64,000 bases of DNA from Escherichia virus TH47 (MT446416.1), one strand, 5' to 3'; positions 7,110 to 54,838 are shown, numbered from the stretch's first letter. The notes: generated from the sequence alone by a model not told the origin. Numbers and translations: made by a program.

Positions 7110-7271
7110 TTATAAACTGAAAGCTTTTTCGCGTGAAGGACGATCATGTGCAAGACTTTGGTCAGGCTTTAGTAGACCTAGTGAATCAAGATACTTATGC
7201 TTATGTGCATTATCAATTCCAGAAATATCCACATCATGCGATGGATCTTTCTTATTCCATTTATCAACCAT
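7110..7271 (-). CDS. small hypothetical protein (53 aa), absent from the ORF track
   Basis: Hand translation MVDKWNKKDPSHDVDISGIDNAHKHKYLDSLGLLKPDQSLAHDRPSREKAFSL; AAGGAG SD 7 nt upstream. Confidence 0.55.
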   Translation of the reverse strand: MVDKWNKKDPSHDVDISGIDNAHKHKYLDSLGLLKPDQSLAHDRPSREKAFSL

Positions 7272-7345
7272 TTCACACTCCTTAAAGAGATAAATTACTT
7301 TAATATTTATACTTCATGTGCTGTTTATTTCCACAGACACTTAAG

Positions 7346-7356
7346 ATTATATCACA
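7346..7356 (-). promoter_or_regulatory. extended -10 promoter element TGTGATATAAT
   Basis: Minus strand reads ..catatgTGtGaTATAATc..; the same 11-mer recurs at 37107 and 38786. Confidence 0.45.
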
Positions 7357-7382
7357 TATGAAATGGTTGTTCCAAAGTCAAA

Positions 7383-7826
7383 TCAGTACTGTTTAAGTTC
7401 TGAACTGAAGATAAAGGAATCCATATCTTCTAGTGTTAACTTCAAGTCCGGTGTGTACTTTAATATCACACATTCAGGTTTCTTAATGGCAGCTTGATAG
7501 GCAGCAATTGCCAACTGTTGAAGCTGCTCTGGTGTGTAGTTCATGCGTTCTGCATTGAATACGATGTTGTTAATATCACCACCTGGCAGCTTCTCAAACT
7601 CACGCATAACAGCAGCCATCACATCATCAGATGTATTCTTATAAGCCCAATGAGGTAGTTGCATAACATCATAAATCTCGCCATTGTCGTTCATAAGAGA
7701 GATCCATTTTTTACCGTCCGATGAACTAAACAGACGACCTTTAATAGCAATGTTCTCTACCAAATTAACAAAGGCAAATATGTCTTGCTCATTTAGTTCA
7801 ATGCTATTAACGTTAATCCAACCCAT
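7383..7826 (-). CDS. hypothetical protein (147 aa)
   Basis: Start re-picked at MGWINVN (GGAG SD 8 nt upstream). Confidence 0.7.
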   Translation of the reverse strand: MGWINVNSIELNEQDIFAFVNLVENIAIKGRLFSSSDGKKWISLMNDNGEIYDVMQLPHWAYKNTSDDVMAAVMREFEKLPGGDINNIVFNAERMNYTPEQLQQLAIAAYQAAIKKPECVILKYTPDLKLTLEDMDSFIFSSELKQY

Positions 7827-7839
7827 ACTACATCTCCAG

Positions 7840-8412
7840 TTATAAATCACGAACGACATTCATTAAACACAATTTGGGCTTTATCGCATTCAAAACCCAT
7901 ATGCATTCTTTGTAAGTTGCTATTATAGCATCTAAATGCTCAGTTACAATGCTTTCTTGAAAATATTCTTCTTCATTGAGTTTTGCTAAATTAGTCACAT
8001 CACATGTAGGTACTATAGGTCTGGATTGTACACCCATTCCATTATTGATATTGGTAAAATGTAAAAAATTGTACTTCACCACACCGTTATCTACACTTAT
8101 GATGCATGTCAAATGTTCCAACTCAGTTAGTTCGGTATTACAAGTGACATGAATGAATCCAGCATTATAGGCTCTATAATCATCTACTAATATCTCAAAA
8201 TCATTACGTTCAAATATAAGTGAAATGAGTTTGTCTTGTGGTTTAACCTTCTGAAATTTTACCGAATTTACGTATGATACTTTAATCTTAGATGAAATTA
8301 TCTTTTTACTAAGTGCAGTTAATTCTTCTTTAGCCTTAAAAGTTAAAGTTATAGGTCTAAATCTAGAACTTTTGTTCTTCTTTGATACTTTGAACTTACC
8401 TTTTCTATTCAT
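7840..8412 (-). CDS. hypothetical protein (190 aa)
   Basis: ORF track. Confidence 0.7.
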   Translation of the reverse strand: MNRKGKFKVSKKNKSSRFRPITLTFKAKEELTALSKKIISSKIKVSYVNSVKFQKVKPQDKLISLIFERNDFEILVDDYRAYNAGFIHVTCNTELTELEHLTCIISVDNGVVKYNFLHFTNINNGMGVQSRPIVPTCDVTNLAKLNEEEYFQESIVTEHLDAIIATYKECIWVLNAIKPKLCLMNVVRDL

Positions 8413-8466
8413 TAATTAAACCCCACATAAAGTAAAAGGGATGGCATATTACCAACCCTATATCTT

Positions 8467-8703
8467 TTATTTTTTAATAGATTCATAAAGCAGAAACAAC
8501 CAAATAAACATTGATGAACAAACTACTACTGGGATTAATGTAAATTCAGTAAAGAATAAAAGTATTCCATAAGTTAGTATGCAACATAAGTTTACGTACA
8601 TAATTGCTTCTGCATTTTTATTTTTCATTTTATATGCAATGAATGTTGGTGACCACATTACCAAAAATGCAAACAACGCACATATGATGATTACAGTTTC
8701 CAT
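8467..8703 (-). CDS. small membrane protein (78 aa)
   Basis: Start re-picked at METVII (GGAGG SD); three hydrophobic segments. Confidence 0.6.
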   Translation of the reverse strand: METVIIICALFAFLVMWSPTFIAYKMKNKNAEAIMYVNLCCILTYGILLFFTEFTLIPVVVCSSMFIWLFLLYESIKK

Positions 8704-8774
8704 ATTACACCTCCGCAAAATAATGTTCTGTACTGCTATTATTTACAGAGAATATCTAAAAAAATTGATCTAGA

Positions 8775-8999
8775 TCAATTTTTAGTCACTTTACAATTTG
8801 AATCTTTTTTGTACTGAACAATCACATTGTTCTTAAGGAAGATGATGGTCCCATAGGAACCTTGGGCTGCAACTTCAACAATATGGTTCTTATATGTTTC
8901 AGTATACCCTTCCATCTCGTTGATACACACTACATGATACTTTGGTTTAGCACATACAACAGTACTCAAGAATAGCAGTACTAGTACTAGATATTTCAT
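8775..8999 (-). CDS. secreted small protein (74 aa)
   Basis: Signal-peptide-like MKYLVLVLLFLSTVVCA. Confidence 0.55.
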   Translation of the reverse strand: MKYLVLVLLFLSTVVCAKPKYHVVCINEMEGYTETYKNHIVEVAAQGSYGTIIFLKNNVIVQYKKDSNCKVTKN

Positions 9000-9049
9000 T
9001 TTATTACCTTATAAACAAGAACAGGAATCCTTTTACGGATTCCTATAAT

Positions 9050-9343
9050 TTAGTCCTTTAATGTACCATTGTGTAAACGATTATACACATCATTGCGACG
9101 CAACGCAACAATATCTTCAGCGTACTTCATTGTAAACGCCCATGCTTTTGGATGCACATTAAGCTTCATACGAATGCGATTCTTCATCAATTCACCGCTT
9201 AGGCGAACAAACTCATGAACACCACGACTTCCGTACTCTGAAATCAAATCATTGATGTACATGTTGCGAAGGGTTTCGTCTGTACATTCTTTAACCATTT
9301 CTACGTCTGCCACGATGCTTGCATTTACTGAAGTACTGATCAT
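9050..9343 (-). CDS. hypothetical protein (97 aa)
   Basis: ORF track. Confidence 0.6.
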   Translation of the reverse strand: MISTSVNASIVADVEMVKECTDETLRNMYINDLISEYGSRGVHEFVRLSGELMKNRIRMKLNVHPKAWAFTMKYAEDIVALRRNDVYNRLHNGTLKD

Positions 9344-9355
9344 TTTTAAGTTACC

Positions 9356-9622
9356 TTATTTGAATTGGACTGTAATTTTATCACCTTCAACTACGAACTT
9401 ACAGTCGTAGCGACGGGCCATATCCATATACATATGCTCAGAATACCACGGAACATCAATATCAGGATGCTCTGCGTATTGTAGCACTTCACGGTCACCA
9501 ACAGTAGTGATGACGAAAGGAATGTTCATCTCTCGCAAAAACAACTCAGCACCTGGTGAACGATTGACAAACTCAGTGTCGTTACGCAAAGTAAAACCAT
9601 TGTATTGTAATTTAAGCTTCAT
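9356..9622 (-). CDS. hypothetical protein (88 aa)
   Basis: ORF track. Confidence 0.6.
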   Translation of the reverse strand: MKLKLQYNGFTLRNDTEFVNRSPGAELFLREMNIPFVITTVGDREVLQYAEHPDIDVPWYSEHMYMDMARRYDCKFVVEGDKITVQFK

Positions 9623-9636
9623 GATTATCCTCTAAG

Positions 9637-9981
9637 TTAATACCATTCTTTTAAACCATCAAGTTCGGCTATGTGAGTAATTATAACACAGATCACACTG
9701 AGGTCAAGCATTATTTGCTCATAATTTAATTTTATTCTATCATCATTGTATGCTCTAAAAACAACATCAAAGTCGAAGTAGTTATCGTTTTCATCATTCA
9801 TTGGAATGATTCTATATCTACGCCTACCATCATCATTGAATACAGTTAAACACTGTTTAAATTTCTTCATTATCTGTGTATTCAATGCATTGTAATATGC
9901 AACATCATATTGTGTACAACGTGGGTCATTGGGTAGATAAAACGATACAAATTTTTTTAATTCTATTTGAGTCTTATCCAT
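9637..9981 (-). CDS. hypothetical protein (114 aa)
   Basis: Start re-picked at MDKTQ, overlapping the upstream stop (TATGGATAA). Confidence 0.6.
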   Translation of the reverse strand: MDKTQIELKKFVSFYLPNDPRCTQYDVAYYNALNTQIMKKFKQCLTVFNDDGRRRYRIIPMNDENDNYFDFDVVFRAYNDDRIKLNYEQIMLDLSVICVIITHIAELDGLKEWY

Positions 9982-10414
9982 ATACAGCCTCATGTATTAC
10001 TCTTTTACTTTGGCGGTACTCATCCTTTGCTTCTTTCACTGACATGATACGAACCAGTTTAGCACTACCACAATAGTACTGAACCTGACTACGACCAATG
10101 TCAACATGATTATCAGGAACTTCATATACTGATACAGCAAACCCTGCACGATGTAATTTACCCAAGTCCATAGTAAAGAACTTAAACAAATCATTCAAAC
10201 TCTGACAGCCAAATGCCCAGCCACGTTTGATTGAATAGATTCCATCTTCAGTTGGTTCTGGTTGGAATTGCGAAGGCGTGGTCATGCACAAACGGTCAAA
10301 TCCATTTTTAGTACTGTATCGTGAAGAGTACCGTGCGAACGGACCTACTGTTTTTGCTGGATCTAAGTTAGGTTCAATATAACTGAATTTAAGTTCAAAA
10401 CGATATACGTACAT
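9974..10414 (-). CDS. hypothetical protein (146 aa)
   Basis: ORF track. Confidence 0.7.
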   Translation of the reverse strand: MYVYRFELKFSYIEPNLDPAKTVGPFARYSSRYSTKNGFDRLCMTTPSQFQPEPTEDGIYSIKRGWAFGCQSLNDLFKFFTMDLGKLHRAGFAVSVYEVPDNHVDIGRSQVQYYCGSAKLVRIMSVKEAKDEYRQSKRVIHEAVYG

Positions 10415-10451
10415 AATTAAAATCCCCAGTATTTGATGAAATAATTATAAC

Positions 10452-10476
10452 AAAAAAGGCTGACCGAAGTCAACCT
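10452..10476 (-). terminator. intrinsic terminator (cassette copy 4)
   Basis: AGGUUGAC-UUCG-GUCAGCCU plus a U run; the stop codon of gene 10470-10661 lies inside the stem. Confidence 0.75.
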
Positions 10477-10661
10477 TTATTTTGAAGTTCTTGAACTAAT
10501 TGTCGTACTTCTTTGATGTTATGACACTGCTTTACAGTGAAGTAATCATACTTACGACCATAGGTTCTTGGGTCATCACCTTCCATATACTGCTGCACAT
10601 CAAAGATTTGTAAGTAGGGATGCTGCATAACACGAATGTTATCACATTGATAAATCAACAT
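10470..10661 (-). CDS. hypothetical protein (63 aa)
   Basis: Start re-picked at MLIYQ (GAGGA SD 8 nt upstream); alternative ATG at 10676. Confidence 0.5.
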   Translation of the reverse strand: MLIYQCDNIRVMQHPYLQIFDVQQYMEGDDPRTYGRKYDYFTVKQCHNIKEVRQLVQELQNKG

Positions 10662-10665
10662 ATGT

Positions 10666-11016
10666 TTAGTCCTCATATTTACACAAGCCACCGAATGTTG
10701 CCTGTTTTGCTGCCTTACGCATCATCACAAGTTTAACATACTGTTCGCCATTACTTTCTTCATATACATCAACTTGAAGAAATGCAAGCATATTGGGATC
10801 AGTATCATTCGAGTACTGCGTAAAACTAATGTCACCTACAGTATGTTCTTTAACAAAATTATACACTTCACCGTCGATATAAACGATAGTATGGTCATCG
10901 CTATCACCTTGGTAAATGTGTTTAATATCACCTTCAGTACAGACTAGTCCAGGTAATGGTTCTGCATAAGACATACCACACACAATCATACAAACAAAAA
11001 ACAAAATTACTTTCAT
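10666..11016 (-). CDS. secreted protein (116 aa), paralog of 11407-11772
   Basis: Signal peptide MKVILFFVCMIVCGMSYA; shares ..IVYIDGEVYNF.. versus ..IVVDNEVYRF.. Confidence 0.65.
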   Translation of the reverse strand: MKVILFFVCMIVCGMSYAEPLPGLVCTEGDIKHIYQGDSDDHTIVYIDGEVYNFVKEHTVGDISFTQYSNDTDPNMLAFLQVDVYEESNGEQYVKLVMMRKAAKQATFGGLCKYED

Positions 11017-11396
11017 GATTTGTTTCCTTTGGATAAAATTGATTTCTTCACTTTGTACTGCTTGTAGTTATTATACCAAACATCGGTTACATAAATCAAG
11101 TACCAAAGTGATGGATATAATGCTAGACCAATAAAAACTGAAAAAATACTTGTATTAATAAAATCAATACAGTACAGTGTAAATGCAAAGATTAGAATAC
11201 CAATGGTAATCATACTAGCTGTATATGGTACACTATCAGATGCAAACCATGAATCAATCTTACTAATTAAAGTATACTTTCCAGTACTAACAGCATAAAC
11301 AATTGCTACTATACCAAATAATGCCATTGAAATAGTTATTACTGAGTTAATAAGAATCGGAGTAATTAATACATAAAGCATTACATCGTTTATCAT
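11013..11396 (-). CDS. multi-pass membrane protein (127 aa)
   Basis: ORF track; four hydrophobic segments. Confidence 0.65.
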   Translation of the reverse strand: MINDVMLYVLITPILINSVITISMALFGIVAIVYAVSTGKYTLISKIDSWFASDSVPYTASMITIGILIFAFTLYCIDFINTSIFSVFIGLALYPSLWYLIYVTDVWYNNYKQYKVKKSILSKGNKS

Positions 11397-11406
11397 TTGT
11401 TATACC

Positions 11407-11772
11407 TTAAAGTTCACAATGAATATTCAATTTATCAATATCCTGATCGCGTTTGTTCGACGAATCTTGATAAATGTCTATGTAAATATCCCCATCCTTT
11501 GTCTTGGGGTCCACTATCAATATTACATTTGCTATTATACCAGCATCTGATTTATATGTCGATACCTTTTTATTCCCAATCAAACTCTCGGCCCTGAAAC
11601 GGTAAACCTCATTATCTACGACAATATTGTTTCCATTTTGTGGGTCATTAGAAAGTACATGCCATGTTCCATCGTTTCCCATACAATCAAGGGAAGCAGG
11701 TACGGCTGTACTGAACCTTGAATAAAGCATGAATACTACAAACACCATTATCATTCTTATATATTTTTTCAT
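11407..11772 (-). CDS. secreted protein (121 aa), paralog of 10666-11016
   Basis: Signal peptide MKKYIRMIMVFVVFMLYSRFSTA. Confidence 0.65.
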   Translation of the reverse strand: MKKYIRMIMVFVVFMLYSRFSTAVPASLDCMGNDGTWHVLSNDPQNGNNIVVDNEVYRFRAESLIGNKKVSTYKSDAGIIANVILIVDPKTKDGDIYIDIYQDSSNKRDQDIDKLNIHCEL

Positions 11773-11850
11773 TATAACCTCTAACGAGTAATACTTCTAT
11801 ACAAATAATATGTACAGAAGTATTTAATACTATTAGAGAATTTTTGAACG

Positions 11851-12177
11851 TTACTTCTTGCTAGTTAGTTTTTCTTTCAGGATATCAATCCAAATGGAAA
11901 CTTTACCAGCAAACAATGCATTAGCAAACCATACAATTCCAACAATGTTCTCAACTAAATTCATAATTGAAACAAAAGGTCCAATTGGGAATACAAAACT
12001 TACTAACCATGACAGTACTGAAATAAGTACTACAACAAAGAAGATTCGTGCAATAGGTGAGTCTAGCATAAACAACTCACGAAACTCATCACGCTCGGTT
12101 TCGTCTTTAATGAAGAATTCGAAAACCATAACCAATAACAGAATTAGAGCAGGAATTGAAATTAGAACTGATAACAT
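11851..12177 (-). CDS. membrane protein (108 aa)
   Basis: ORF track; hydrophobic. The antisense ORF 11858-12205 is rejected. Confidence 0.6.
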   Translation of the reverse strand: MLSVLISIPALILLLVMVFEFFIKDETERDEFRELFMLDSPIARIFFVVVLISVLSWLVSFVFPIGPFVSIMNLVENIVGIVWFANALFAGKVSIWIDILKEKLTSKK

Positions 12178-12224
12178 GTTTTATATCCTCAAGTTTAAGT
12201 GTTAAGTTTCAGACTACAAGAACC

Positions 12225-12252
12225 ATTATACAGTACTACGAACGTTTGTCAA
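12225..12252 (-). promoter_or_regulatory. sigma70-like promoter
   Basis: TTGACA-aacgttcgtagtactg-TATAAT on the minus strand (16-nt spacer). Confidence 0.55.
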
Positions 12253-12478
12253 CATTTGTTTCTTCAATAAGCATAAGATAACTTAACACGAAGAGTAATA
12301 CAGATACAATGTCAATAACGGTGAAGCTTACTGGAATGATAATAGACACTAGAACGAGTGCCACGTTTAGCAAGAATACAGTAGTGATATCTACCAGCTT
12401 TCGTTTAGTGGCTACTGCTACTAGTGTAGGGTAGAACATAAACAATAATGCAACTACAAAACTCAATACTAGATACAT
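12236..12478 (-). CDS. small membrane protein (80 aa)
   Basis: ORF track; three hydrophobic segments. Confidence 0.6.
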   Translation of the reverse strand: MYLVLSFVVALLFMFYPTLVAVATKRKLVDITTVFLLNVALVLVSIIIPVSFTVIDIVSVLLFVLSYLMLIEETNVDKRS

Positions 12479-13131: not shown

Positions 13132-13164
13132 AGTATCCTCAGTTGCAGTTGTTTTTTGATGTAG

Positions 13165-13591: not shown

Positions 13592-13594
13592 TTG

Positions 13595-14528: not shown

Positions 14529-14538
14529 GATATTCGCC

Positions 14539-14682
14539 TTAGAATAATTTATTAATAATAGCACCCACCGCAAGAACTGCAATAATTACAGATACCCACA
14601 TTACTGCATTCACTGTACCAGTTAGTTCTTTATCAAACTCCCTGCACTTCTTACGGTACTCTTCCCACTCTTTGTTATTCAC
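14539..14682 (-). CDS. possible 47-aa C-terminally membrane-anchored peptide (GTG start)
   Basis: Hand translation (V/M)NNKEWEEYRKKCREFDKELTGTVNAVMWVSVIIAVLAVGAIINKLF; GGAG SD; GTGA overlap with the upstream stop. Confidence 0.35.
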   Translation of the reverse strand: MNNKEWEEYRKKCREFDKELTGTVNAVMWVSVIIAVLAVGAIINKLF

Positions 14683-15534: not shown

Positions 15535-15536
15535 TG

Positions 15537-16214: not shown

Positions 16215-16298
16215 TTAATCACCAAAAATCATCAGATACCCAAACCAACCCACACAGACGACTAAGCTAACAATACCAAAGACAATCTCTAAAGTCAT
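16215..16298 (-). CDS. possible 27-aa hydrophobic peptide
   Basis: Hand translation MTLEIVFGIVSLVVCVGWFGYLMIFGD; AAGGA SD 7 nt upstream. Confidence 0.3.
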   Translation of the reverse strand: MTLEIVFGIVSLVVCVGWFGYLMIFGD

Positions 16299-17947: not shown

Positions 17948-18552
17948 TAGATATTCCTCAATGGTTAATCATCCATCTCTTCGAGATGTCTGTTCGCTTC
18001 TAATACTACGTATTCTACGCGAATGAATCATAACTGTCAAGGACTTTTAATATTGACGGGATTTGTTGAGGACTTTTTCATCCCCCGCAGGGGAATGATG
18101 GTAAGAAAAAAGAGACAATTAAGTCTCTTCTTGACGCTGATGGCATCGGATTTTATTGTATCGTGAATTTAGGACGGATCTATATTGTAATAAATCAATC
18201 GCAAACGGAAGCGGGTTGCTCTGTTTCTCCCTATCACGGTCATATGCAACGGTCACTGGTCTTTTCATCCCAGCACTCACTTAAAACTCCATACAATCGA
18301 AGTTCAAGCTGTCTTATAATAAGACTCCCTTAGCAAATCTGGTAAGGTGCGATCCTTATATGTCTATCGAGGAACTCTCGGTATGCTTATCGGAGTTCTT
18401 TATACAGCCGCATTGCCGTGAGGGGTTCAAACTATGCCCACATCTAACGGGTTTCTTTTGCTGTTCGTTCTGTAGCACAACTCATCTGCCCTCTACATTT
18501 TCGAGTGGTTCAGGATTATTTTATTCTAAATGAGCTACAGGTTTTTTTTATT
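17948..18552 (-). ncRNA. candidate large structured non-coding RNA (strand uncertain)
   Basis: 605 nt with no ORF of 60 aa or more in any frame. Hand-counted 60-nt lines are 42-48% G+C versus 28% for a line in the adjacent gene. Several 6-8-bp hairpins (18079-18100, 18110-18129, 18371-18399). Confidence 0.35.
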
Positions 18553-18558
18553 CTAAAT
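18519..18558. repeat. 13-nt direct repeat TTTTATTCTAAAT x2 (18519-18531, 18546-18558)
   Basis: Read directly; the second copy spans the stop codon of the AP2/HEG-like gene. Confidence 0.7.
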
Positions 18559-19185
18559 TTTACTTAATGACAAAGTAATACGTCCATTAAGTAAATCATC
18601 GTTTAAAACATCAATTCTACGTTGTAAACCTTTTATTACACCATCTGACACACTATTATTATATTTTTTAATAATATCAGAAAGATGTTCTTTTTTGGCT
18701 AATTGCCATTTTGCATGAGCTTCTTCAGGTGTGGGAAATGCACCCAAATGATATTTTTTCTTATTTTTGTAAATTTGTGCATAATATGGATTTTTGTATT
18801 CAAAACTCATATTTTTTTTAGGTATATGATAACAAACACCAAGTGGTTGATTTTTATTATTTTTGTCAATGATACACATGTTTATTTCATTTGGTACAAA
18901 TGAACACGTTTCAGGAGAATACATTTTTTTATTACCGTCGATTAAATCTTTATCTAATTCATAACCATCTTTGTAATTTGATATATACCATTCTTTAAAT
19001 TTAGAGTATGTTTTCCATTCATCACATATAATAACTCCTATATATGTTTTATGAGTTTCTTGATACTTTTCAGAATAACATCGTTTTATCATATCTTTCC
19101 ATGTATAATAAACTTTACTATAAACACTTTTTTTTGTGGAATCACCTTTAACATCATTGATTCCAAAACCATATACCAATTTCAT
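18553..19185 (-). CDS. AP2-domain, homing-endonuclease-like DNA-binding protein (210 aa)
   Basis: YYTWKDMIKRCYSEKYQ..Y.GV.ICDEWKTYSKFKEWY, then KKYHLGAFPTPEEAHAKWQLAKKEH (AP2-like). Free-standing between a terminator and the ORF-free segment. Confidence 0.55.
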   Translation of the reverse strand: MKLVYGFGINDVKGDSTKKSVYSKVYYTWKDMIKRCYSEKYQETHKTYIGVIICDEWKTYSKFKEWYISNYKDGYELDKDLIDGNKKMYSPETCSFVPNEINMCIIDKNNKNQPLGVCYHIPKKNMSFEYKNPYYAQIYKNKKKYHLGAFPTPEEAHAKWQLAKKEHLSDIIKKYNNSVSDGVIKGLQRRIDVLNDDLLNGRITLSLSKI

Positions 19186-19246
19186 ATTAAATTCCAATTA
19201 TGGTTATCATACTAACATTGTATCACACTTTCTAAATTTGTCCCAT

Positions 19247-32076: not shown

Positions 32077-32458
<382 letters not shown>

Positions 32459-32477
32459 GCATACTCGAAGTACCTCT

Positions 32478-32583
<106 letters not shown>

Positions 32584-32627
32584 AATTGCTTTATAAGCTA
32601 CTGAATCGGGAATCACAACCTCCCCAT

Positions 32628-33145
<518 letters not shown>

Positions 33146-33449: not shown

Positions 33450-34154
33450 TTACAAGCCATGTCTTTTCAAAAATCTAGCAAACACATTTTTGGAAGCACC
33501 ATAGCTTTCATATATACTAACTTTTTTCTCACCATTAGTCAAACGTTTTTTTATATCTTCTATGTTATCTTCTAAACGTTTTACGTTTGCAAATTTCTTA
33601 GATGGTATGTTATTTTTGGTTCTATAATTCAGTACTGAACCTGAACTGATATTCATTATTTTAGCAATTTCAGTATCTAACAAACCTTGGTTAATATATT
33701 CTTTTACCTTTTCATAATCAACTGATGTTTCACCACCCTTTGTATTTGACGGAGGCTTGACCATTTTTTGTGAACACTCAACACTACAATATTTTGTATA
33801 TGATTTCACTTTAGTATGTCTACGGGAAAATTCCGTATTACAACAAGCACATACAAATGAATCATATCGTGCTTGTACTCCATTCTTATGTGTTTTATAA
33901 CGATGTTCATCAACATGAAGTATTTGTAAATTAGACAAATCATCATTTGTGAAATCATTATCAATGTGGTCTGCTTCTTCAGACTCAGTTAAATATCTAC
34001 CTTCTTGTACTGCTAATAGATATCTGGCATATTGAGTACTGCTTCTATCAGTTGGAGAATTATAAAGTATTACAGTTCTTCTACCTTCAGGGTTTATCTG
34101 TATATACCCATTCTTCCAATCATTACTATATGGATATTCTAATTTTATTTTCAT
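33450..34154 (-). CDS. HNH homing endonuclease with C-terminal HTH-like region (234 aa)
   Basis: EADHIDNDFTNDDLSNLQILHVDEHRYKTH; starts 19 nt after the tRNA-Met 3' end and stops 8 nt before tRNA-Asn. Confidence 0.75.
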   Translation of the reverse strand: MKIKLEYPYSNDWKNGYIQINPEGRRTVILYNSPTDRSSTQYARYLLAVQEGRYLTESEEADHIDNDFTNDDLSNLQILHVDEHRYKTHKNGVQARYDSFVCACCNTEFSRRHTKVKSYTKYCSVECSQKMVKPPSNTKGGETSVDYEKVKEYINQGLLDTEIAKIMNISSGSVLNYRTKNNIPSKKFANVKRLEDNIEDIKKRLTNGEKKVSIYESYGASKNVFARFLKRHGL

Positions 34155-34173: not shown

Positions 34174-34478
34174 TGAGCCATCTGTGAGTCGAACACAGTA
34201 CCTAACGATTCGTATAATCTATAGTTTTCACTATAGTACGGACTATATCATCATCCCATAGGGATGCCGGACGCTAATGATGTATTACACAGTAAGATCG
34301 TACTGTACCATCTAGTCTCTGCACCTTCCCAATACGCTTATTGGGCTTGGCTCAGGATTGTCATCACCATTACGTGTTAAGATTTCCCTGAATTCATCCA
34401 GTTTTTCAATCACCATTACTGATGAAAGTCACCATTGTCGATGAGTCGTTTGCTCTAACCACCGTGAGCTAATGGCCC
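34174..34478 (-). tRNA. tRNA-Met/Ile2-type (anticodon CAT) interrupted by a 230-nt intron
   Basis: 5' exon (34478-34441) GGGCCAT-TA-GCTC-ACGGTGGTTA-GAGC-A-AACGA-CTCAT. 3' exon (34210-34174) AA-TCGTT-AGGTA-CTGTG-TTCGACT-CACAG-ATGGCTC-A. The joined exons give a canonical cloverleaf. Confidence 0.85.
34211..34440 (-). mobile_element. group I intron (IC3-like) in the anticodon loop of tRNA-Met
   Basis: Follows U36 and ends in G. Contains CAGGGAAA, CAATCCTGAGCCAAGCC, GGGAAGGTGCAGAGACTAGATGG and TAGTCCG, which match the core of bacterial tRNA group I introns as I remember them. No ORF inside. Confidence 0.8.
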
Positions 34479-34507
34479 GATTTGGGTGTTCCTAGTGTTT
34501 CATTATT

Positions 34508-34721
<214 letters not shown>

Positions 34722-35126: not shown

Positions 35127-35483
35127 ATCACCAACTTTAATTAAAAAAATGGATGGTTACGCTTTTAAACGCCGCTGTTAATTCAGCTTTATAACCACCC
35201 GTTTTAACTTGCCTTTCGGCTACCTTGACGTGGGGGCGTACAGGCTACTAAAAGCAACTTCTGTAAACATATTTCCACACCTTACCCTTTTAAATAAAAG
35301 TCCATCCGGTTTTCCAGTTTGGTGAAGGACTGTCACCTCTAGTTTAAACCTGCTAGTCAAGTAATAATTGCCTATCGTCCAATTATCAAACCCGTCTAGG
35401 TTAACATTCACCACTTCCTAGAGTGCCAGAGATCTTGTTCTGGATTTCATCGACGTAACTTACACCATATACGTCTGATTGTG
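35127..35483 (-). ncRNA. ORF-free structured leader or candidate ncRNA (~355 nt)
   Basis: Starts just after promoter 35490-35518. About 45% G+C in a counted line. Hairpins include GCC-GAAA-GGC and GGTGA-cagtcct-TCACC. Ends ..CCAUCCAUUUUUUU 20 nt before the next ATG. Track ORF 35220-35414 is implausible. Confidence 0.3.
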
Positions 35484-35898: not shown

Positions 35899-36101
<203 letters not shown>

Positions 36102-36105
<4 letters not shown>

Positions 36106-36266
36106 ATTCGTACCAGTAGTTCAATTAAGTACATTTCATATGCTGGATCGTTGATAAGTTTATCATACAGATGTGACTCTGAAATGAATTCCCAATGATA
36201 TTTTCGCCATTTACCAAAACCTGCATATCTAAAATTAATGTCATTCATCCATTCTTCATGTGTCAT
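36102..36266 (-). CDS. 54-aa MTHEEW-family micro-protein, copy B
   Basis: MTHEEWMNDINFRYAGFGKWRKYHWEFISESHLYDKLINDPAYEMYLIELLVRI; ATGA overlaps on both sides. Confidence 0.6.
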
Positions 36267-36427
36267 AATCGTACCATTATTTCAATAAAGAACCACGGAT
36301 ATACTTCATGGTTTATAAGTTTATCGTATTCTGCTGGGTCTGATATAATTTCCCAATGATATTTTCGCCAACTACCTATACCCGAATATCTAACATTAAT
36401 GTCATCCATCCATTCTTCATGTGTCAT
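36263..36427 (-). CDS. 54-aa MTHEEW-family micro-protein, copy A
   Basis: MTHEEWMDDINVRYSGIGSWRKYHWEIISDPAEYDKLINHEVYPWFFIEIMVRL. Confidence 0.6.
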   Translation of the reverse strand: MTHEEWMDDINVRYSGIGSWRKYHWEIISDPAEYDKLINHEVYPWFFIEIMVRL

Positions 36428-38829: not shown

Positions 38830-39006
38830 TTATTTTTTATCTCTAATAGCAAGCTCGTAGATGAACCAGTGGTTAGAATCTTCGTCCAAAACCAATGATT
38901 CGAACGTTTTTTTATCGTTCAAAACATCATAATGGCCTTGGCGTATACCAAAACCAAAAGGATTATGTTTGAATTTTAGTTCATCTAACCATTCTTTGTG
39001 TGTCAT
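38830..39006 (-). CDS. 58-aa MTHEEW-family micro-protein, copy D (not in the ORF track)
   Basis: MTHKEWLDELKFKHNPFGFGIRQGHYDVLNDKKTFESLVLDEDSNHWFIYELAIRDKK; ATGA overlap with the upstream stop. Confidence 0.55.
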   Translation of the reverse strand: MTHKEWLDELKFKHNPFGFGIRQGHYDVLNDKKTFESLVLDEDSNHWFIYELAIRDKK

Positions 39007-40779: not shown

Positions 40780-40929
40780 TCAATCAGATTTCTTTTCGTA
40801 ATCTGCAAAAACAGTCAGGATTGTTGCACCCAGTGAATCAACTGCTGCTGCACGTTTTTCATCAAGGGATTTCGCTAGTTCTTGAATCTCTTGAAGTTTT
40901 ACTACTAAGTCAATTTTTTGATTACTCAT
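40780..40929 (-). CDS. small hypothetical protein (49 aa)
   Basis: Start re-picked at MSNQKIDLV (AGGAG SD); the track N-terminus overlaps the upstream gene. Confidence 0.5.
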   Translation of the reverse strand: MSNQKIDLVVKLQEIQELAKSLDEKRAAAVDSLGATILTVFADYEKKSD

Positions 40930-44605: not shown

Positions 44606-44647
44606 TTGATTAATATAGGAGTATTATACATACTCCATTTTCATGTG

Positions 44648-44791
44648 TCAAGCTTTATAATACGGAAGACTTTTCACTAAAGATTCGGACGTATTATTTT
44701 TAACCCATGTACTACCGTTGTCATTGGATACATATCCAGTACCATTAACAAACTTACGCATAATACCAGTAAAAATGTTCGTATACACCAT
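44648..44791 (-). CDS. small hypothetical protein (47 aa), not in the ORF track
   Basis: MVYTNIFTGIMRKFVNGTGYVSNDNGSTWVKNNTSESLVKSLPYYKA; AAGGA SD; TAATG overlap with the upstream ORF. Confidence 0.45.
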   Translation of the reverse strand: MVYTNIFTGIMRKFVNGTGYVSNDNGSTWVKNNTSESLVKSLPYYKA

Positions 44792-44961
44792 TATTCAGTA
44801 TCCTTCGGTTTAGAATGTAAACCATACTTTTCATCATAACGGTCATAAGTAGTACCATTCGTACTAGCTTTGATGCTTTCGGTACGATTGATTTGTTCAA
44901 TCTTCACACCACGATAACCAATCTCTTCTTTAAATTGTTCCCATGATTCACGTAGACTCAT
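44791..44961 (-). CDS. small hypothetical protein (56 aa), not in the ORF track
   Basis: MSLRESWEQFKEEIGYRGVKIEQINRTESIKASTNGTTYDRYDEKYGLHSKPKDTE. Confidence 0.45.
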   Translation of the reverse strand: MSLRESWEQFKEEIGYRGVKIEQINRTESIKASTNGTTYDRYDEKYGLHSKPKDTE

Positions 44962-44973
44962 TTTAGTCCCCTT

Positions 44974-45120
44974 TTGTTATTTCATACACTCACGTAGAAC
45001 AATCTTTTCAACTGAACCACCGAGTACTAGATAGTGAAAATTAGAATCTTTGTTTGCCATATTCAAAAGATCTGCTTTCTGTTGAAGCGTAAAGCGTGAA
45101 GTACTGTTACGTACTGGCAT
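44974..45120 (-). CDS. small hypothetical protein (48 aa), not in the ORF track
   Basis: MPVRNSTSRFTLQQKADLLNMANKDSNFHYLVLGGSVEKIVLRECMK; AAGGAG SD 6 nt upstream. Confidence 0.5.
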
Positions 45121-45122
45121 AG

Positions 45123-47435: not shown

Positions 47436-47437
47436 GT

Positions 47438-49327: not shown

Positions 49328-49379
49328 ATAAAATCCTTTTTATATTGTTAAGGTACTATAATATATTATAGCATCTTAT

Positions 49380-49631: not shown

Positions 49632-49709
49632 CGGATTCCCCATATCGTTCGTCGTAAAAATCATCATCACGGTCCAACGGTTCTTTTGGTTTTTCTGTCA
49701 TATATTTCC

Positions 49710-49970
49710 TCACATGGTAAATGTATTATCACCATCCATATCTTCATCTGTAGCTTCAGCTAAGGTCTTAATCGTCAATAATTCACGCTTCACGTACAAC
49801 ATGAAGACCTTTTCATAATTACCAAACATCATCTCAGGTGACATGTAATTCTCCGTTACAATGACGATTGGGCGGCCCTGTGACAGCATACGAAACATAG
49901 TACGGTATTTGTCAAAGGTGCGAAATTCATCCATGTTCATCATGTGGCGTTTACGAACTACTTTAGTCAT
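49710..49970 (-). CDS. hypothetical protein (86 aa)
   Basis: ORF track. Confidence 0.6.
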   Translation of the reverse strand: MTKVVRKRHMMNMDEFRTFDKYRTMFRMLSQGRPIVIVTENYMSPEMMFGNYEKVFMLYVKRELLTIKTLAEATDEDMDGDNTFTM

Positions 49971-49984
49971 TTTGATACCTTTAG

Positions 49985-50440
49985 TTAATTGAACTCGATT
50001 TCTGGATAATGATTATAGAACATCTCACGTACTGCGTCAAGCTGTTCTTTAAATTTCTCAATGTCATCAAGAGTTAGTACAGTATCACTAACAGTACTCA
50101 ACTGAAAAAGTGTCTCTTCAGTACTGTTTTCTGATAAATCAAATGTACATGATGAATCATCTGATATAATATTATCACATATTTCAAATGTGTCAATATG
50201 AACATCATTGAGTAGATCACCACTATAATCATTATATATGAACACAAAAATGTATGATGGTTTTTTTATCTCAGTTTCTGACTCATAGGCTACCAAATCA
50301 TATGTAACGTAACATTTAAAGTCAGGTGAATCGTATTCCATAGATACAATTCCTATATCACGATATTGATTCGTTTCACTGATTAAATCCGGTATAGGTG
50401 TAATACCAAGTAAATGAAAAAACTGTCCTGGATTTAGCAT
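49985..50440 (-). CDS. FQxST-motif paralog family member (151 aa)
   Basis: Motif STEETLFQLSTVSDTVLT. Confidence 0.7.
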   Translation of the reverse strand: MLNPGQFFHLLGITPIPDLISETNQYRDIGIVSMEYDSPDFKCYVTYDLVAYESETEIKKPSYIFVFIYNDYSGDLLNDVHIDTFEICDNIISDDSSCTFDLSENSTEETLFQLSTVSDTVLTLDDIEKFKEQLDAVREMFYNHYPEIEFN

Positions 50441-50889
50441 TTGATTACCTTCGGGTTTTGCTCTGTGATATCAAACATAGATAGAACGAAATCATTTAGC
50501 TTTTCAACACAATTGATTATAGTGCTTAAATCAGAATAACTAACTGTTAAATTTTTAACAAGAGATTCCTGAAAGTATCCTTCTTCAGTTGAGCAATAAC
50601 TCACATTTGAGATAGTCTCATAATGTATATCTTTGCTTGTTTTACATGTTATAATTTCTATTATATCCGATGTTGTGTTATATAATAATATAAATGTTGT
50701 TGTTCGTGAATTCTTATTGTAAAATGCGAGTTCTGTGCTGTCATATGTTTTCTCAATAAGAACATTGTACTCTTCCGAAAATGATGTGGAAATTCTAATT
50801 ATCTCTTCTGGATCAGGAACATAAGAGCCATCAAATTTACAAGACAATGCAATTTCAAAATGATTTTTTATTTCATCAATTTTCATCAT
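50434..50889 (-). CDS. FQxST-motif paralog family member (151 aa)
   Basis: Motif STEEGYFQESLVKNLTVS; ATGA overlap with the upstream stop. Confidence 0.7.
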   Translation of the reverse strand: MMKIDEIKNHFEIALSCKFDGSYVPDPEEIIRISTSFSEEYNVLIEKTYDSTELAFYNKNSRTTTFILLYNTTSDIIEIITCKTSKDIHYETISNVSYCSTEEGYFQESLVKNLTVSYSDLSTIINCVEKLNDFVLSMFDITEQNPKVIKC

Positions 50890-51260
50890 AGCTCACCATT
50901 TAATTTGCTATTTACATATTCTAATGCTTTTTTAGCAATGCCAATTTCGGTAACTCCTATTACATTTTTCTCGATTAACGACAATTGAAATAGTTCATCT
51001 TCATCAATATCAATACTATGGGTTCTTGACCAATAATAATTGAAGTCATATGCATATCGTATTGTATTTTCTTTAATATCAAGTACCAATATGACCATAC
51101 CATCGTGTAGGTATGTCAGTGTTTTTCCGTATATATTAAAAATTAACCTATCTGGTGTACCCAATGGAAGATGAATTATATTTTGTGTAGTTCCAACAAT
51201 AACAAAATCATTATCTATATTTTTATTCAAGTCACCTAGAATGTCATATATAGTAGTCAT
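50886..51260 (-). CDS. FQxST-motif paralog family member (124 aa)
   Basis: Start re-picked at MTTIYDIL; motif DEDELFQLSLIEKNVIGVT. Confidence 0.7.
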   Translation of the reverse strand: MTTIYDILGDLNKNIDNDFVIVGTTQNIIHLPLGTPDRLIFNIYGKTLTYLHDGMVILVLDIKENTIRYAYDFNYYWSRTHSIDIDEDELFQLSLIEKNVIGVTEIGIAKKALEYVNSKLNGEL

Positions 51261-51261
51261 G

Positions 51262-51666
51262 TTAATCTTGACCCTCAGCATTTCTGATGATTCGCATTAC
51301 TTCTCTGGATAGGTCGAATACTTTTTTATAGTACTCAAATGTAACTGAACCAAAATCATTAACAGTACTATCCATGAAGAACGATTCTTCGGTGCAATAC
51401 ACACCTGTAATTGAAACATGCTCTTGATGGAATTTAGCATCTTTCCAGTAACGGAATTCGAAAATAAATTGCCCGTCATGACCAACCCTACAACACTCGG
51501 CACGGTCACTGTCTACACAGCTAATCACAATATCCCTCTCGGAGTCATACCAGATATTTCCAATATTTGTTTCAATAACTGCATAATCAATTTTTGTAGA
51601 ATTGGGAATTAAACCTTTTTTTACCAGTACTAGACTGGTATTATCAATATCCAGAAAACTTACCAT
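51262..51666 (-). CDS. FQxST-motif paralog family member (134 aa)
   Basis: Motif CTEESFFMDSTVNDFGSVT. Confidence 0.7.
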   Translation of the reverse strand: MVSFLDIDNTSLVLVKKGLIPNSTKIDYAVIETNIGNIWYDSERDIVISCVDSDRAECCRVGHDGQFIFEFRYWKDAKFHQEHVSITGVYCTEESFFMDSTVNDFGSVTFEYYKKVFDLSREVMRIIRNAEGQD

Positions 51667-51667
51667 A

Positions 51668-52078
51668 TCAACTCCCCACTATTACTGTGTTTTTAATTTC
51701 TAACAATTCACTATACATCTTCTTCAATTGTACAATATCTTCATATAAAATACCACCCATATCATCAATCAAAGAACGTTGAAATAGTGATTCATCTGAC
51801 TGTATTGTGTCCAAATCAGAAATTTTCAAAACTGTATCTGGGTTTAGTGTGTTTACAATAAGTTTGTTTGTGTATGGTACGTATGTGATCTTGATATTCA
51901 TTTCTGAATCAAGGGCATACAACCTCAAAACTGACAAATCACCACAAAGTTGGATTTTTGGTTCATCAAACTCATCAGACCACCACATAGTACTAGTCAT
52001 ATAATTGACGTGTTGGTTCAAATGTGATATATCCAAATCGAAATAATATTTTAGTTCATTGTGTAAATCTAAACTCAT
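51668..52078 (-). CDS. FQxST-motif paralog family member (136 aa)
   Basis: Motif QSDESLFQRSLIDDMGGIL. Confidence 0.7.
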   Translation of the reverse strand: MSLDLHNELKYYFDLDISHLNQHVNYMTSTMWWSDEFDEPKIQLCGDLSVLRLYALDSEMNIKITYVPYTNKLIVNTLNPDTVLKISDLDTIQSDESLFQRSLIDDMGGILYEDIVQLKKMYSELLEIKNTVIVGS

Positions 52079-52133
52079 AAATTTATCCTCTATGCATCAT
52101 TATCTTACATTGTAGGATAAACCCACGATAATG

Positions 52134-52529
52134 TCAAGATGTGAATTGCTTATACCAGTGATACAATTCTTTTAATTCTTCAGTACTGAATAGAACATCT
52201 TCAATCGTTGTTTGTTGGAAGTGGTAATCTTCGTTTAAGTACATTGAAATATTTTTATATACTTTTCGATTACATTTTCCAAGAAACGATGTTCTTTTGG
52301 ATGTGTATTCAATAAATGTTAACTTATCTAATTCTATATCCAATGACAATTTAGTACAGTATTCAGTATCATCTACGTACATAAGTTTATTTGAATAACA
52401 ATCAACTGTGATATATTCTTTATGTGAGAATTGATATATACCATTAAATTTTTTACCATTTGTACTTCTGAATTTTTCAAGGTAATAAGATAGTGGTTTA
52501 GATATTGTACTACCAATAGTATTATTCAT
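52134..52529 (-). CDS. FQxST-motif paralog family member (131 aa)
   Basis: Motif LNEDYHFQQTTIEDVLFST. Confidence 0.7.
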   Translation of the reverse strand: MNNTIGSTISKPLSYYLEKFRSTNGKKFNGIYQFSHKEYITVDCYSNKLMYVDDTEYCTKLSLDIELDKLTFIEYTSKRTSFLGKCNRKVYKNISMYLNEDYHFQQTTIEDVLFSTEELKELYHWYKQFTS

Positions 52530-52551
52530 AGAACCTCAAAATTTAGACAAG

Positions 52552-52576
52552 AAAAATGCCCCGAAGATCGGGGCAG
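52552..52576 (-). terminator. intrinsic terminator
   Basis: Minus RNA UGCCCCG-aucuu-CGGGGCA plus UUUUUC. Confidence 0.75.
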
Positions 52577-52691
52577 TACGAAAAAGATTTTGTACAAAAA
52601 AGGGGAATAATACAATCAAATAAAATGATAACGTATCATTATTATGTAAGGGAGGAAAGTAACATGATAATGTTAACCATTGCTGGTATAA

Positions 52692-53243
52692 TTATTTATC
52701 ATTTAATTCTTTTAATTGAGCTTGTATATCACCAGAAAGTTTGCGGATTTTCTTGAAACAGTACACGCTATCATCAAGTTCAAGTTCTAGACCGTGAGTG
52801 ATTGCATAAAGCATTTCAGCAAGCACTAGATCCTGACGCATCCAGTTACCATTCTTATAGGTTGTCATTACACAATACGGACAGTGGCTGTTTCCGGTTT
52901 GTTTACCCAGGAATACAGATTGGATTGTATCATGCTTGAAACCTACAAAAGATTGGTTGATCTTATTGATTTCAGCTACAACGTCCATTTGTGCACCAGT
53001 GTTAATTGCAAACACTTCATCACCGTTCTCGGTTTTGTTGATGTTTAGTTCAATATCACTACCAAGTTTACGAACAGCCAATGTATAAAGTAGGATTTCA
53101 TACATATCATAATTAGTTGTTTCGCCATTTGGTGCAGTTACATCGAGACTAACACCATGCATTTTTACTTCAGTACTGAATCCATCTTTATCTGCTAGAA
53201 AATCAGTGATTTGTTCAGTTAGGATTTTAATTTGGTCAATCAT
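52692..53243 (-). CDS. hypothetical protein (183 aa)
   Basis: ORF track. Confidence 0.7.
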   Translation of the reverse strand: MIDQIKILTEQITDFLADKDGFSTEVKMHGVSLDVTAPNGETTNYDMYEILLYTLAVRKLGSDIELNINKTENGDEVFAINTGAQMDVVAEINKINQSFVGFKHDTIQSVFLGKQTGNSHCPYCVMTTYKNGNWMRQDLVLAEMLYAITHGLELELDDSVYCFKKIRKLSGDIQAQLKELNDK

Positions 53244-53261
53244 TATTCATATCCTTATGTT

Positions 53262-53289
53262 GGAAAAGCCCCCATTACGGAGGCTTTTT
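53262..53289. terminator. intrinsic terminator (A- and T-tracts on both sides)
   Basis: AAAA-GCCCCC-attac-GGAGGC-TTTTT. Confidence 0.65.
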
Positions 53290-53296
53290 AATCTAA

Positions 53297-53725
53297 TTAT
53301 AGGGAAGCTTCGTATTCAGCTACAATGTCAACCATCTCATTGACAAAGTTGATGTGGTCATGAGTTACTGTGCGGAAATCATAAACCAGTGATTGTTGGA
53401 AGAATACGTCTTCAGCCAGATTACCTTCAAAGTTCAGGTCGATGTTTTCTTCATCGTTGGTCGGAGCAACTTTGATATTTAGTTGATTTTCATCAACAAC
53501 CAATTTCACAACACAACCCAATGCAATCGCCAGTACATAAGCAGGTTTCTTCGCCGCTTCAGAACGGAATGGAGCACGTAGAGCACAAATGGTGCTGCTA
53601 ATCTCATCATTCTGTTCTTTATATTTAACGTTAATCATCAGTTCTTCAATTTTGACGCTCTCGATTACACGACCAGTTTCAGCAGCGAAGAAAGAGTGGT
53701 TACGGATAGTTTGTTCGATATTCAT
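53297..53725 (-). CDS. FQxST-motif paralog family member (142 aa)
   Basis: Motif LAEDVFFQQSLVYDFRTVT. Confidence 0.7.
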   Translation of the reverse strand: MNIEQTIRNHSFFAAETGRVIESVKIEELMINVKYKEQNDEISSTICALRAPFRSEAAKKPAYVLAIALGCVVKLVVDENQLNIKVAPTNDEENIDLNFEGNLAEDVFFQQSLVYDFRTVTHDHINFVNEMVDIVAEYEASL

Positions 53726-53728
53726 GTG

Positions 53729-53923
53729 TTATTCCTTATATAGATTGCTAAAGTTACGAAGATTACGGTTTGCTTTAAACTGTTTTAAATCACCAAATCT
53801 ATCATCAACGATAAAAGTGGCAGCCTGTTTTGATTGGCATATTGTACAAATCAACATACCCTGTATTGTATACTCGGTTGAACAATTTGTACAGTACTTT
53901 TTTTCATAAAGTTCAGTACTCAT
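53729..53923 (-). CDS. small zinc-ribbon protein (64 aa)
   Basis: CTNC...CTIC Cys pairs. Confidence 0.55.
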   Translation of the reverse strand: MSTELYEKKYCTNCSTEYTIQGMLICTICQSKQAATFIVDDRFGDLKQFKANRNLRNFSNLYKE

Positions 53924-54255
53924 AAAACCTTCACATCACTACGTTTATCTCTTTCTTCTTTCTTTACCTCATCGGAGCGGGTATCTTCTAATTGTAACAC
54001 AACTTCTTTCAGAATGTCAACATCAATCATTGCTTCTTTGTATTGAAAGTCGTTTACGCCGAAAATATACTTCAATGCAACCCATACACGTTTGTACCAT
54101 TTTAAGAAAGGATTCAAACGCATACTCACCAGACATTGACCAAGTTTATCATCTCCATGTTCTTGTGTCAAGTCAAATTGTGAAATGTGAACACAATGTT
54201 CCGTATTATCGCCACAACTACAACGTACTATAAATTCTTTGCTGTCTTTGCTCAT
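53920..54255 (-). CDS. hypothetical protein (111 aa)
   Basis: ORF track. Confidence 0.6.
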   Translation of the reverse strand: MSKDSKEFIVRCSCGDNTEHCVHISQFDLTQEHGDDKLGQCLVSMRLNPFLKWYKRVWVALKYIFGVNDFQYKEAMIDVDILKEVVLQLEDTRSDEVKKEERDKRSDVKVL

Positions 54256-54674
54256 ACTGGATAAGCCTTCATAAATTGTTTTAGAACTCCAAACTTAGAA
54301 GCACTGTAATCATACTGATAACTTAGCTCACGTTTATCATTCATTCGATAAACCATATGATTGTTTGGATAACCAATTCTAACAGGTTTGATAGGATTTG
54401 CAAGCAAAATTGCCCATTCTTTTACAGGAAAAACGTTTTCAGATAACATCTTCACATCTTTACTGTAATACTTCATTGCTTGGGTACAGTGCTTGTAATC
54501 TTCTGCACTCAGTTCTTCACACACAACACTGTGCGTTTCAGTACTGGATACCCATGTCTCTTCTTCATAATATAAGTCAATTACATCTTCTACGGTATAG
54601 CTATCAGGTAGATCATAATATACCCAATTACTAAAACCAGAGCTTACACCAACTCGAATTCGATAGTACTTCAT
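54252..54674 (-). CDS. hypothetical protein (140 aa)
   Basis: ORF track. Confidence 0.7.
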   Translation of the reverse strand: MKYYRIRVGVSSGFSNWVYYDLPDSYTVEDVIDLYYEEETWVSSTETHSVVCEELSAEDYKHCTQAMKYYSKDVKMLSENVFPVKEWAILLANPIKPVRIGYPNNHMVYRMNDKRELSYQYDYSASKFGVLKQFMKAYPV

Positions 54675-54838
54675 ATTTTTTTATCATCCGATTTTACGTA
54701 ATAGTAACATACAATGCAGTGAATTACAAGAAGAATAATTTCTAATACATTCAGTGCCACGACATGCCCTTGTGGGACCGTAAGTGCCAATAACAACATT
54801 ATAGTAGGTATTACGAATATTGTCCATGTTTTTTTCAT
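54671..54838 (-). CDS. small two-pass membrane protein (55 aa), not in the ORF track
   Basis: MKKTWTIFVIPTIMLLLALTVPQGHVVALNVLEIILLVIHCIVCYYYVKSDDKKI; ATGA overlaps at both ends. Confidence 0.5.
   Translation of the reverse strand: MKKTWTIFVIPTIMLLLALTVPQGHVVALNVLEIILLVIHCIVCYYYVKSDDKKI

Follow-up and report, generated by a model that had tools for sequence, protein, structure and literature searches.

Small genes in the apparent gaps of the TH47 stretch

Genes of fewer than 60 amino acids (aa) had been proposed, in a sequence-only reading, to lie hidden in apparent gaps between the longer open reading frames (ORFs) of a stretch of DNA from Escherichia virus TH47 (MT446416.1), and here we report a computational analysis of that whole stretch of 64,000 nucleotides (nt), hereafter the window. 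BLAST matches place the source genome in Asteriusvirus, the group of 121Q/PBECO4-like E. coli jumbo phages. Queried as three parts against 50,697 phage records, the window had no matches other than jumbo phages of E. coli and Salmonella from the 121Q/PBECO4 group and, more distantly, Klebsiella phages of the RaK2 type; identity to the window is 96-99% for the closest relatives, 77-96% by region for 121Q and PBECO4, and ~72% for A4. The G+C content is ~34% and nearly all long ORFs are on the minus strand. The window is a portion of the accessory gene region, where genes run head to tail on one strand and many have fewer than 60 codons. Scans of IMG/VR with a neighbouring protein and with a core RNA motif (described below) returned only 121Q and RaK2 themselves, and our comparisons therefore rested on GenBank phage records, using the annotated syntenic regions from 121Q (NC_025447), A4 and Turkey3.

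The short ORFs at issue, with the six probable genes given first, are as follows (CDS, annotated coding sequence; SD, Shine-Dalgarno site).

44648..44791, minus strand: 47-aa gene (121Q gp99, PBECO4 gp408), a CDS in 121Q, PBECO4 and Turkey3
44791..44961, minus strand: 56-aa gene (121Q gp98), a CDS in 121Q, PBECO4, Turkey3 and A4
44977..45120, minus strand: 47-aa gene (121Q gp97, A4_125), a CDS in four relatives
54671..54838, minus strand: 55-aa hydrophobic protein gene (121Q gp76, A4_105), with ATGA overlaps at both ends
14539..14682, minus strand: 47-aa gene (121Q gp179), with a GTG start and an AGGAG SD
32147..32260, minus strand: 37-aa gene (121Q gp139), the real part of the span 32147-32363
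32247..32363, minus strand: 38-aa ATG ORF, the upstream part of the same span
16215..16298, minus strand: 27-aa hydrophobic ORF, unsupported as a gene
6888..7271, minus strand: 127-codon gene (121Q gp199, 'virion structural protein'), interrupted in frame by TAA at 7110-7112

From comparison of these frames with those of relatives we estimate, at a probability of about 0.88, that 44648-44791, 44791-44961, 44977-45120, 54671-54838, 14539-14682 and 32147-32260 are genuine protein-coding genes, that 7110-7271 is the 5' part of a truncated gene, and that 16215-16298 and 32247-32363 are most likely non-coding. The small genes are already known, being present in the GenBank annotations of relatives and in PHROGs. 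The listed ORFs were all found on the minus strand, with the SD sites and the overlaps with neighbours that had been described for them, and conservation in relatives, a check that the sequence-only reading had itself named, held for five of its eight ORFs and for the 37-aa part of a sixth. The broader proposal that short genes occupy apparent gaps, leaving less non-coding space than there seems to be, is thus borne out by conservation, purifying selection and annotation in relatives.

Conservation and coding signatures

The first five ORFs of the list, referred to below as the five main ORFs, are annotated as CDSs in 121Q (gp99, gp98, gp97, gp76 and gp179), PBECO4 and Turkey3, and A4 annotates all of them except 44648-44791; PBECO4 gp408-410 are counterparts among the small genes. 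Together with gp139, the counterparts in 121Q (gp76, gp97-99, gp179), PBECO4, A4 and Turkey3 lie at the same positions, share 74-100% aa identity with the window's products and differ from them in length by at most one to three codons; all carry the name 'hypothetical protein' and are so far unstudied. An intact frame with a start and a ribosome-binding site or translational coupling is present in all eight ORFs as proposed, failing only for the span 32147-32363, which runs across two frames. In diverged relatives the five main ORFs and 32147-32260 stay intact, with indels of 3 nt only. The start codons and SD sites of the five are kept in relatives, including the GTG of 14539-14682, which is found in all four genomes (the window, Turkey3, A4 and 121Q).

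Substitutions within the five main ORFs cluster at the third codon position (e.g. 1/0/9, 1/0/8, 2/1/7, 11/5/19 and 3/3/15 at positions 1/2/3), and the ratio of nonsynonymous to synonymous change (dN/dS, by the Nei-Gojobori method) spans 0.02-0.21 across them at informative divergence. Four of the five have whole-length matches to PHROG families (E 2.5e-9 to 4e-34); the whole-length profile matches obtained in this work, to PHROG 2381, 6110/5441, 26722, 38271, 38501 and 10970, are all to families of 'unknown function'. A home-made third-order periodic Markov model trained on the window's long genes gave four of the five main ORFs scores between +0.09 and +0.34 bits per codon, where the long genes average +0.17 and plus-strand ORFs -0.29; the score was positive for 7110-7271, 44648-44791, 44791-44961, 44977-45120 and 14539-14682 and negative for the hydrophobic 54671-54838 and 16215-16298. 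Chance was gauged by the number of dinucleotide shuffles (2000 per gap) that reach the observed ORF coverage on the gene strand. None of 2000 did so in the gap 44606-45122 or in the gap 54675-54834, and 9 of 2000 in the gap at 14539-14682; ORFs on the gene strand thus fill these gaps well beyond chance expectation.

Three of these genes form the tract 44648-45120. The 47-aa ORF 44648-44791 is exactly as first described; it matches phrog_2381 (E 2.5e-9), differs from 121Q by 1/0/9 substitutions at the three codon positions (dN/dS 0.02), and encodes a single Asp-box-like motif, SNDNGSTW. By tblastn, full-length relatives of it were found across 233 phage records, among them myoviruses of 140-155 kb (e.g. 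phAPEC8). The 56-aa ORF 44791-44961 is likewise exact, its own TAA overlapping the next ATG as TAATG. Its coding score, +0.34 bits per codon, is the highest in the set; it matches phrog_6110 (E 6e-22) and has a dN/dS of 0.02-0.07, and its residues 26-51 are ~85% identical in T5-like phages (251 records in all). The third gene had been placed at 44974-45120 with 48 aa; the gene itself holds, but its coordinate ran 3 nt too far, the true ORF being 44977-45120 with 47 aa and its TAA at 44977-44979. It matches phrog_26722 (E 5e-32), has a dN/dS of 0.06-0.13 at informative divergence and retains its TAAGGAG and ATG in relatives.

Of the two genes whose products are predicted to be membrane-embedded, 54671-54838 is exact at 55 aa, with an ATGA overlap at each end. 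Hydropathy analysis marks residues 3-49 as hydrophobic, with PQGH at 22-25 where a turn would fall, and the product is probably a two-helix membrane hairpin; its dN/dS is 0.14-0.21 and it differs from 121Q by a 3-nt indel. ORF 14539-14682 had been ranked only as a weaker candidate, yet it is exact at 47 aa and a real gene by conservation and dN/dS (0.07-0.12, with a 3-nt indel); it matches phrog_38271 (E 4e-34), its SD reads AGGAG or GGGAG in all four genomes, and its product has a charged N-terminus and a C-terminal hydrophobic helix.

A sixth candidate, 32147-32363, had been given as one ORF. This does not stand, as the span is 217 nt long, which is not a multiple of three, and merges two overlapping frames; of these, 32147-32260 alone is conserved. 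The product of this part shares 100% aa identity with 121Q and 95% with A4 and Turkey3 and matches phrog_38501 (E 1e-30), and it is the first ORF past a conserved TTGACA-17-TATAAT promoter. The other part, 32247-32363, is the ATG-initiated tail of a 77-aa GTG ORF (32247-32480) in a frame different from that of 32147-32260. Its ATG sits in the TATAATG -10 box of the conserved promoter and its only match is a weak one (phrog_37371, E 2.4e-5). Because a 9-codon ORF takes its place in A4 and 121Q, 32247-32363 is probably not a gene.

Several observations count against, or qualify, this view of the six. Pfam returned nothing above threshold for any of the small proteins. Two of the genes are not essential, 44648-44791 being absent from A4 and 14539-14682 from RaK2. 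The 54671-54838 gene is confined to one genus: a broad protein search gave no more than 6 clusters of homologues, which came from either E. coli jumbo phages or unnamed contigs, no PHROG family was matched, and its Markov score is negative (-0.10 bits per codon), which we attribute to its hydrophobic composition. Finally, 32147-32260 carries too few changes for an informative dN/dS and lies in a stretch that is highly conserved at the DNA level.

If the six small genes are expressed as their arrangement suggests, they would be translated from polycistronic transcripts, each through its own SD or through ATGA/TAATG coupling to its neighbour. Their products would be small accessory proteins, two of them membrane-embedded (54671-54838 and 14539-14682) and three of them, from 44648-45120, small and soluble; by analogy, their likeliest action would be to bind targets in the host or in membranes in the course of takeover or exclusion. 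The small early proteins of T4-type phages act in this way, and the short early or accessory products of these phages include the 26-aa Stp and the membrane-located Imm and Sp. The likeness lies in the very short products, the dense and translationally coupled genes, the non-structural region and the membrane embedding of some of the proteins; no sequence relationship to the window genes was found, however, and the comparison is one of analogy only.

Candidates that are probably not independent genes

The 27-aa ORF 16215-16298 is present as proposed and lacks a coding signature. It is annotated in none of 121Q, A4 and Turkey3. A real membrane micro-protein overlooked by annotators is unlikely here, although the window, Turkey3, A4 and 121Q all have an ATG-started ORF of similar size behind a TAAGGAT SD, and the 121Q product is still hydrophobic despite a frameshift. 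That shift, a 1-nt indel, leaves an ORF of similar length in 121Q but alters two thirds of the peptide; moreover, substitutions fall at 4/2/4 and 5/3/4 over the codon positions with no third-position bias, dN/dS is 0.45-0.97, the Markov score is negative, and neither a RaK2 homologue nor a PHROG family was found. What conservation there is may simply belong to the adjacent promoter region.

The 53-aa ORF 7110-7271 was also exact, with AAGGAG 7 nt upstream, but it is, rather than an additional small gene, the 5' piece of the 127-codon gene 6888-7271. Its product is 98-100% identical to residues 1-53 of the 127-aa protein that Turkey3 and 121Q (gp199) encode, and in the DNA alignment codon 54 is TAA in the window versus GAA in Turkey3 and 121Q. 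An independent gene would be expected to have a conserved stop; the relatives instead read GAA and continue for 73 codons in frame. In the window, too, the frame stays open after the TAA at 7110-7112 as far as 6888, and the 68-aa TTG ORF 6888-7094 is therefore the tail of the same gene. The read-through protein matches phrog_16530 (E 3e-54), and over its 127 codons the gene is colinear with 121Q gp199 and phrog_16530 at 94-98% protein identity and a dN/dS of 0.03 versus 121Q, the difference from gp199 being that only 53 codons are translatable from the normal start in the window. The gap that holds 7110-7271 is not significant in the shuffle test (142 of 2000). A 51-mer centred on the TAA matched nothing among the 50,697 phage records and both of its flanks are identical in Turkey3, so the T is private to the source genome. 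The truncation of this 127-codon structural-protein gene comes down to one substitution, G to T (GAA to TAA), which is confined to the source genome.

A systematic scan for premature stops found one more, in the homologue of 121Q gp134 at 32888-33145 (minus strand, 85 aa), where TAG at 33044-33046 replaces the TAC of three relatives, which makes two in the 64 kb. Both stops may be sequencing errors or recent nonsense mutations. We consider it highly improbable that 7110-7271 is instead a working 53-aa gene in its own right, whether it acts as a new short isoform or its TAA is read through or suppressed and the full protein still made. In favour of this it retains its AAGGAG SD and ATG, a similar single-base in-frame stop exists elsewhere in the window (32888-33145), and the 73 codons past the TAA are still open with 97.6% protein identity to Turkey3, so that either the change is recent or the tail is still used. 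The TAA is, however, unique to the source genome and is followed by T. A TAA followed by T is an efficient terminator context. Recoding or suppression was set aside as an explanation for the two stops, as no suppressor tRNA was found in the window and the stops differ (TAA and TAG), which means that no single recoding accounts for both. The simpler account is an error of sequencing or assembly, or else a null mutation of recent origin.

Further short genes and over-called frames

By transferring the short CDSs of the three annotated relatives and scanning the gaps, we found that the list of small genes is incomplete, as the window holds at least 5 more conserved genes under 60 aa:

35941-36105, 36102-36266 and 36263-36427, minus strand: three tandem overlapping 54-aa paralogues (121Q gp127, gp126 and gp125)
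38830..39006, minus strand: 58-aa gene (121Q gp118) of the same family, phrog_10970
40780..40929, minus strand: 49-aa gene (121Q gp109), inside an 80-aa TTG ORF of the ORF list

The tandem paralogues match phrog_10970 with E 1e-24 (dN/dS 0.15-0.49) and 38830-39006 matches it with E 3e-29 (dN/dS 0.12-0.17). This family of 54-58-aa proteins thus has four copies in the tRNA region of the window, and relatives carry further paralogues. ORF 40780-40929 shares 84-90% identity with 121Q and Turkey3 and matches phrog_22175 (E 9e-26). At the window's start (1-277), the homologue of 121Q gp213 (58 aa) matches over its first 13 residues only, at 266-228, and the remainder appears to have been replaced or lost in the source genome.

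Two other short 121Q genes, gp82 and gp129, were rejected as further small genes, one being frameshifted in the window and the other interrupted by a stop. Their frames also run over a terminator and an RNA-like unit, and by this comparison they look like annotation over-calls. CDSs of 23-68 aa are annotated over structured RNA or RNA-like units in the Yersinia phage fHe-Yen9-04 (L021 560-712), in the Erwinia phage Hallingskeid (L023 262-766) and, as gp129, in 121Q. That the small ORFs as a whole are chance frames in AT-rich intergenic DNA, and the annotations of relatives automatic over-calls of this very kind, is scarcely credible: it fits 16215-16298 and 32247-32363, but is largely refuted for the five main ORFs and 32147-32260 by their third-position substitutions, indels in multiples of 3 nt, conserved starts and SD sites and homologues in unrelated phage groups, and by the failure of any shuffle to reach the coverage of the two main gaps.

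Conserved non-coding elements in the ORF-free segments

The sequence-only reading had closed on the remark that, with the small genes in place, three remaining ORF-free segments stand out all the more, and this proved well founded, as each of them holds a conserved non-coding element:

18100..18515, minus strand: ~430-nt structured RNA, within the ORF-free segment 17948-18552
32370..32660, minus strand: ultra-conserved non-coding block of 290 nt, covering the ORF-free segment 32481-32663
35127..35483, minus strand: two small RNA-like units, preceded by a promoter at ~35515-35487 and each closing on a T-run

The element at 18100-18515 was found by blastn at 277 places in 69 records, with 4-5 per genome. 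Its carriers are jumbo phages of the RaK2, 121Q, GAP32, CBB, BF, fHe-Yen9-04 and XbC2 types, whose hosts are Escherichia, Klebsiella, Salmonella, Erwinia, Yersinia, Serratia, Xanthomonas, Pectobacterium and Cronobacter, and it is almost never annotated. An alignment of 13 sequences gave a consensus structure with 60 pairs; compensatory double changes affect 27 of these, and standard pairs make up 99.2% of the pair cells. Its covariation score, 0.42 versus 0.04-0.07 with partners slid by 1-3 columns, was reached in 0 of 500 shuffles. A long-range helix pairs the 5' GGCAGAUGA with the 3' UCAUCAGCGUC, and the 3' end is an intrinsic terminator whose stem also covaries, followed by a second hairpin and then by a TTGACA-17-TAGAAT promoter at ~18040-18010.

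The window itself has one copy, which is closer to the 121Q paralogue adjoining endonuclease VII than to the syntenic copy; a copy next to endonuclease VII occurs in the three lineages examined (121Q, Hallingskeid and Munch). Rfam 15 gave no match in the window segment (E up to 10), and in eight other members the element was unmatched at E up to 1, two weak matches lying outside it. The 451-nt ncRNA002 of the related jumbo phage PA5oct was defined by RNA-seq (PMC7318152); it has no sequence homology to the 430-nt family and was rejected as a homologue. Our literature search found no description of the family, but it was incomplete and is not proof of novelty. The odds seem to us about even that 17948-18552 encodes a member of a so-far-undescribed family of ~430-nt structured RNAs, present at 4-5 sites per genome in every phage of the RaK2, 121Q, GAP32, CBB or BF type found, each with a long-range closing helix and a terminator of its own. 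Possible roles include that of a trans-acting RNA or of a structured pre-primer at replication origins.

The other two elements were rejected by nhmmer as further copies of the 430-nt RNA. The block 32370-32660 is nearly invariant across the four genomes and 92-100% identical in the 36 matching records of E. coli and Salmonella jumbo phages. The palindrome ATTCAGTACTGAAT occurs twice in it, and several window promoters nearby have TCAGTACTG in the spacer between TTGACA and TATAAT. Segment 35127-35483 comprises unit A (~35480-35300, ~180 nt) and unit B (~35290-35150, ~135 nt), which are 97-98% identical in 121Q and Turkey3 and ~80% in RaK2. Unit A also has 92% identity to a spacer, itself unannotated, that separates tRNA-Gly from tRNA-Asp in T4-like phages of Proteus (PM2) and Morganella. 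Small stable RNAs are present in the tRNA cluster of T4, and the two units recall these.

A group I intron in a tRNA-Met gene

Rfam detected in the same region a group I intron (RF00028) at 34219-34532 on the minus strand, with 100.5 bits versus a gathering score of 50. The features are:

34174..34478, minus strand: tRNA-Met(CAT) gene, split after the anticodon (between positions 36 and 37), with exon 1 at 34478-34441 and exon 2 from 34210
34440-34211, minus strand: group I intron of 230 nt, unannotated

The 5' exon ends in T (U in the RNA) and the intron in G, the joined exons fold as a canonical 76-nt tRNA-Met(CAT) cloverleaf, and A4 has the same tRNA-Met uninterrupted, i.e. as an intron-less allele. 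The model match, the boundary bases, the joined tRNA and the intron-less allele all agree with a group I intron in the anticodon loop. The split gene, which ARAGORN misses in its default mode, recurs with its interruption in Turkey5 (99%) and five records of Klebsiella jumbo phages (86-89%), none of which annotates it. Group I introns at this anticodon position are known in bacterial tRNA genes (PMC13011429); a literature search, which was not exhaustive, turned up no phage tRNA gene reported to carry one.

A free-standing HNH endonuclease ORF (33450-34154, minus strand, phrog_14913) follows exon 2 immediately downstream and so is not part of the intron. A second one (18553-19197, minus strand, phrog_953) is inserted at the 5' edge of the 430-nt RNA, where Turkey3, 121Q and A4 have no such ORF. 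Pfam gave nothing above threshold for the two HNH-type ORFs. Their position beside RNA genes suggests homing-endonuclease traffic.

What the small genes and RNA elements mean

A 60-aa ORF cut-off conceals about a dozen real genes in this 64-kb window, all of which the standard annotation of related phages lists, and the proposal of hidden small genes was in that sense largely right but ordinary. An ORF in a gap may also be the stump of a broken gene, and comparison with relatives should precede the calling of a new one. The opposite error, the annotation of tiny ORFs across conserved RNA elements, occurs in this phage group as well. The most useful part of the sequence-only reading was its closing remark on the ORF-free segments, and it is the multi-copy structured RNA family, the group I intron in a phage tRNA gene and the RNA-like units in the tRNA cluster that are of specialist interest.

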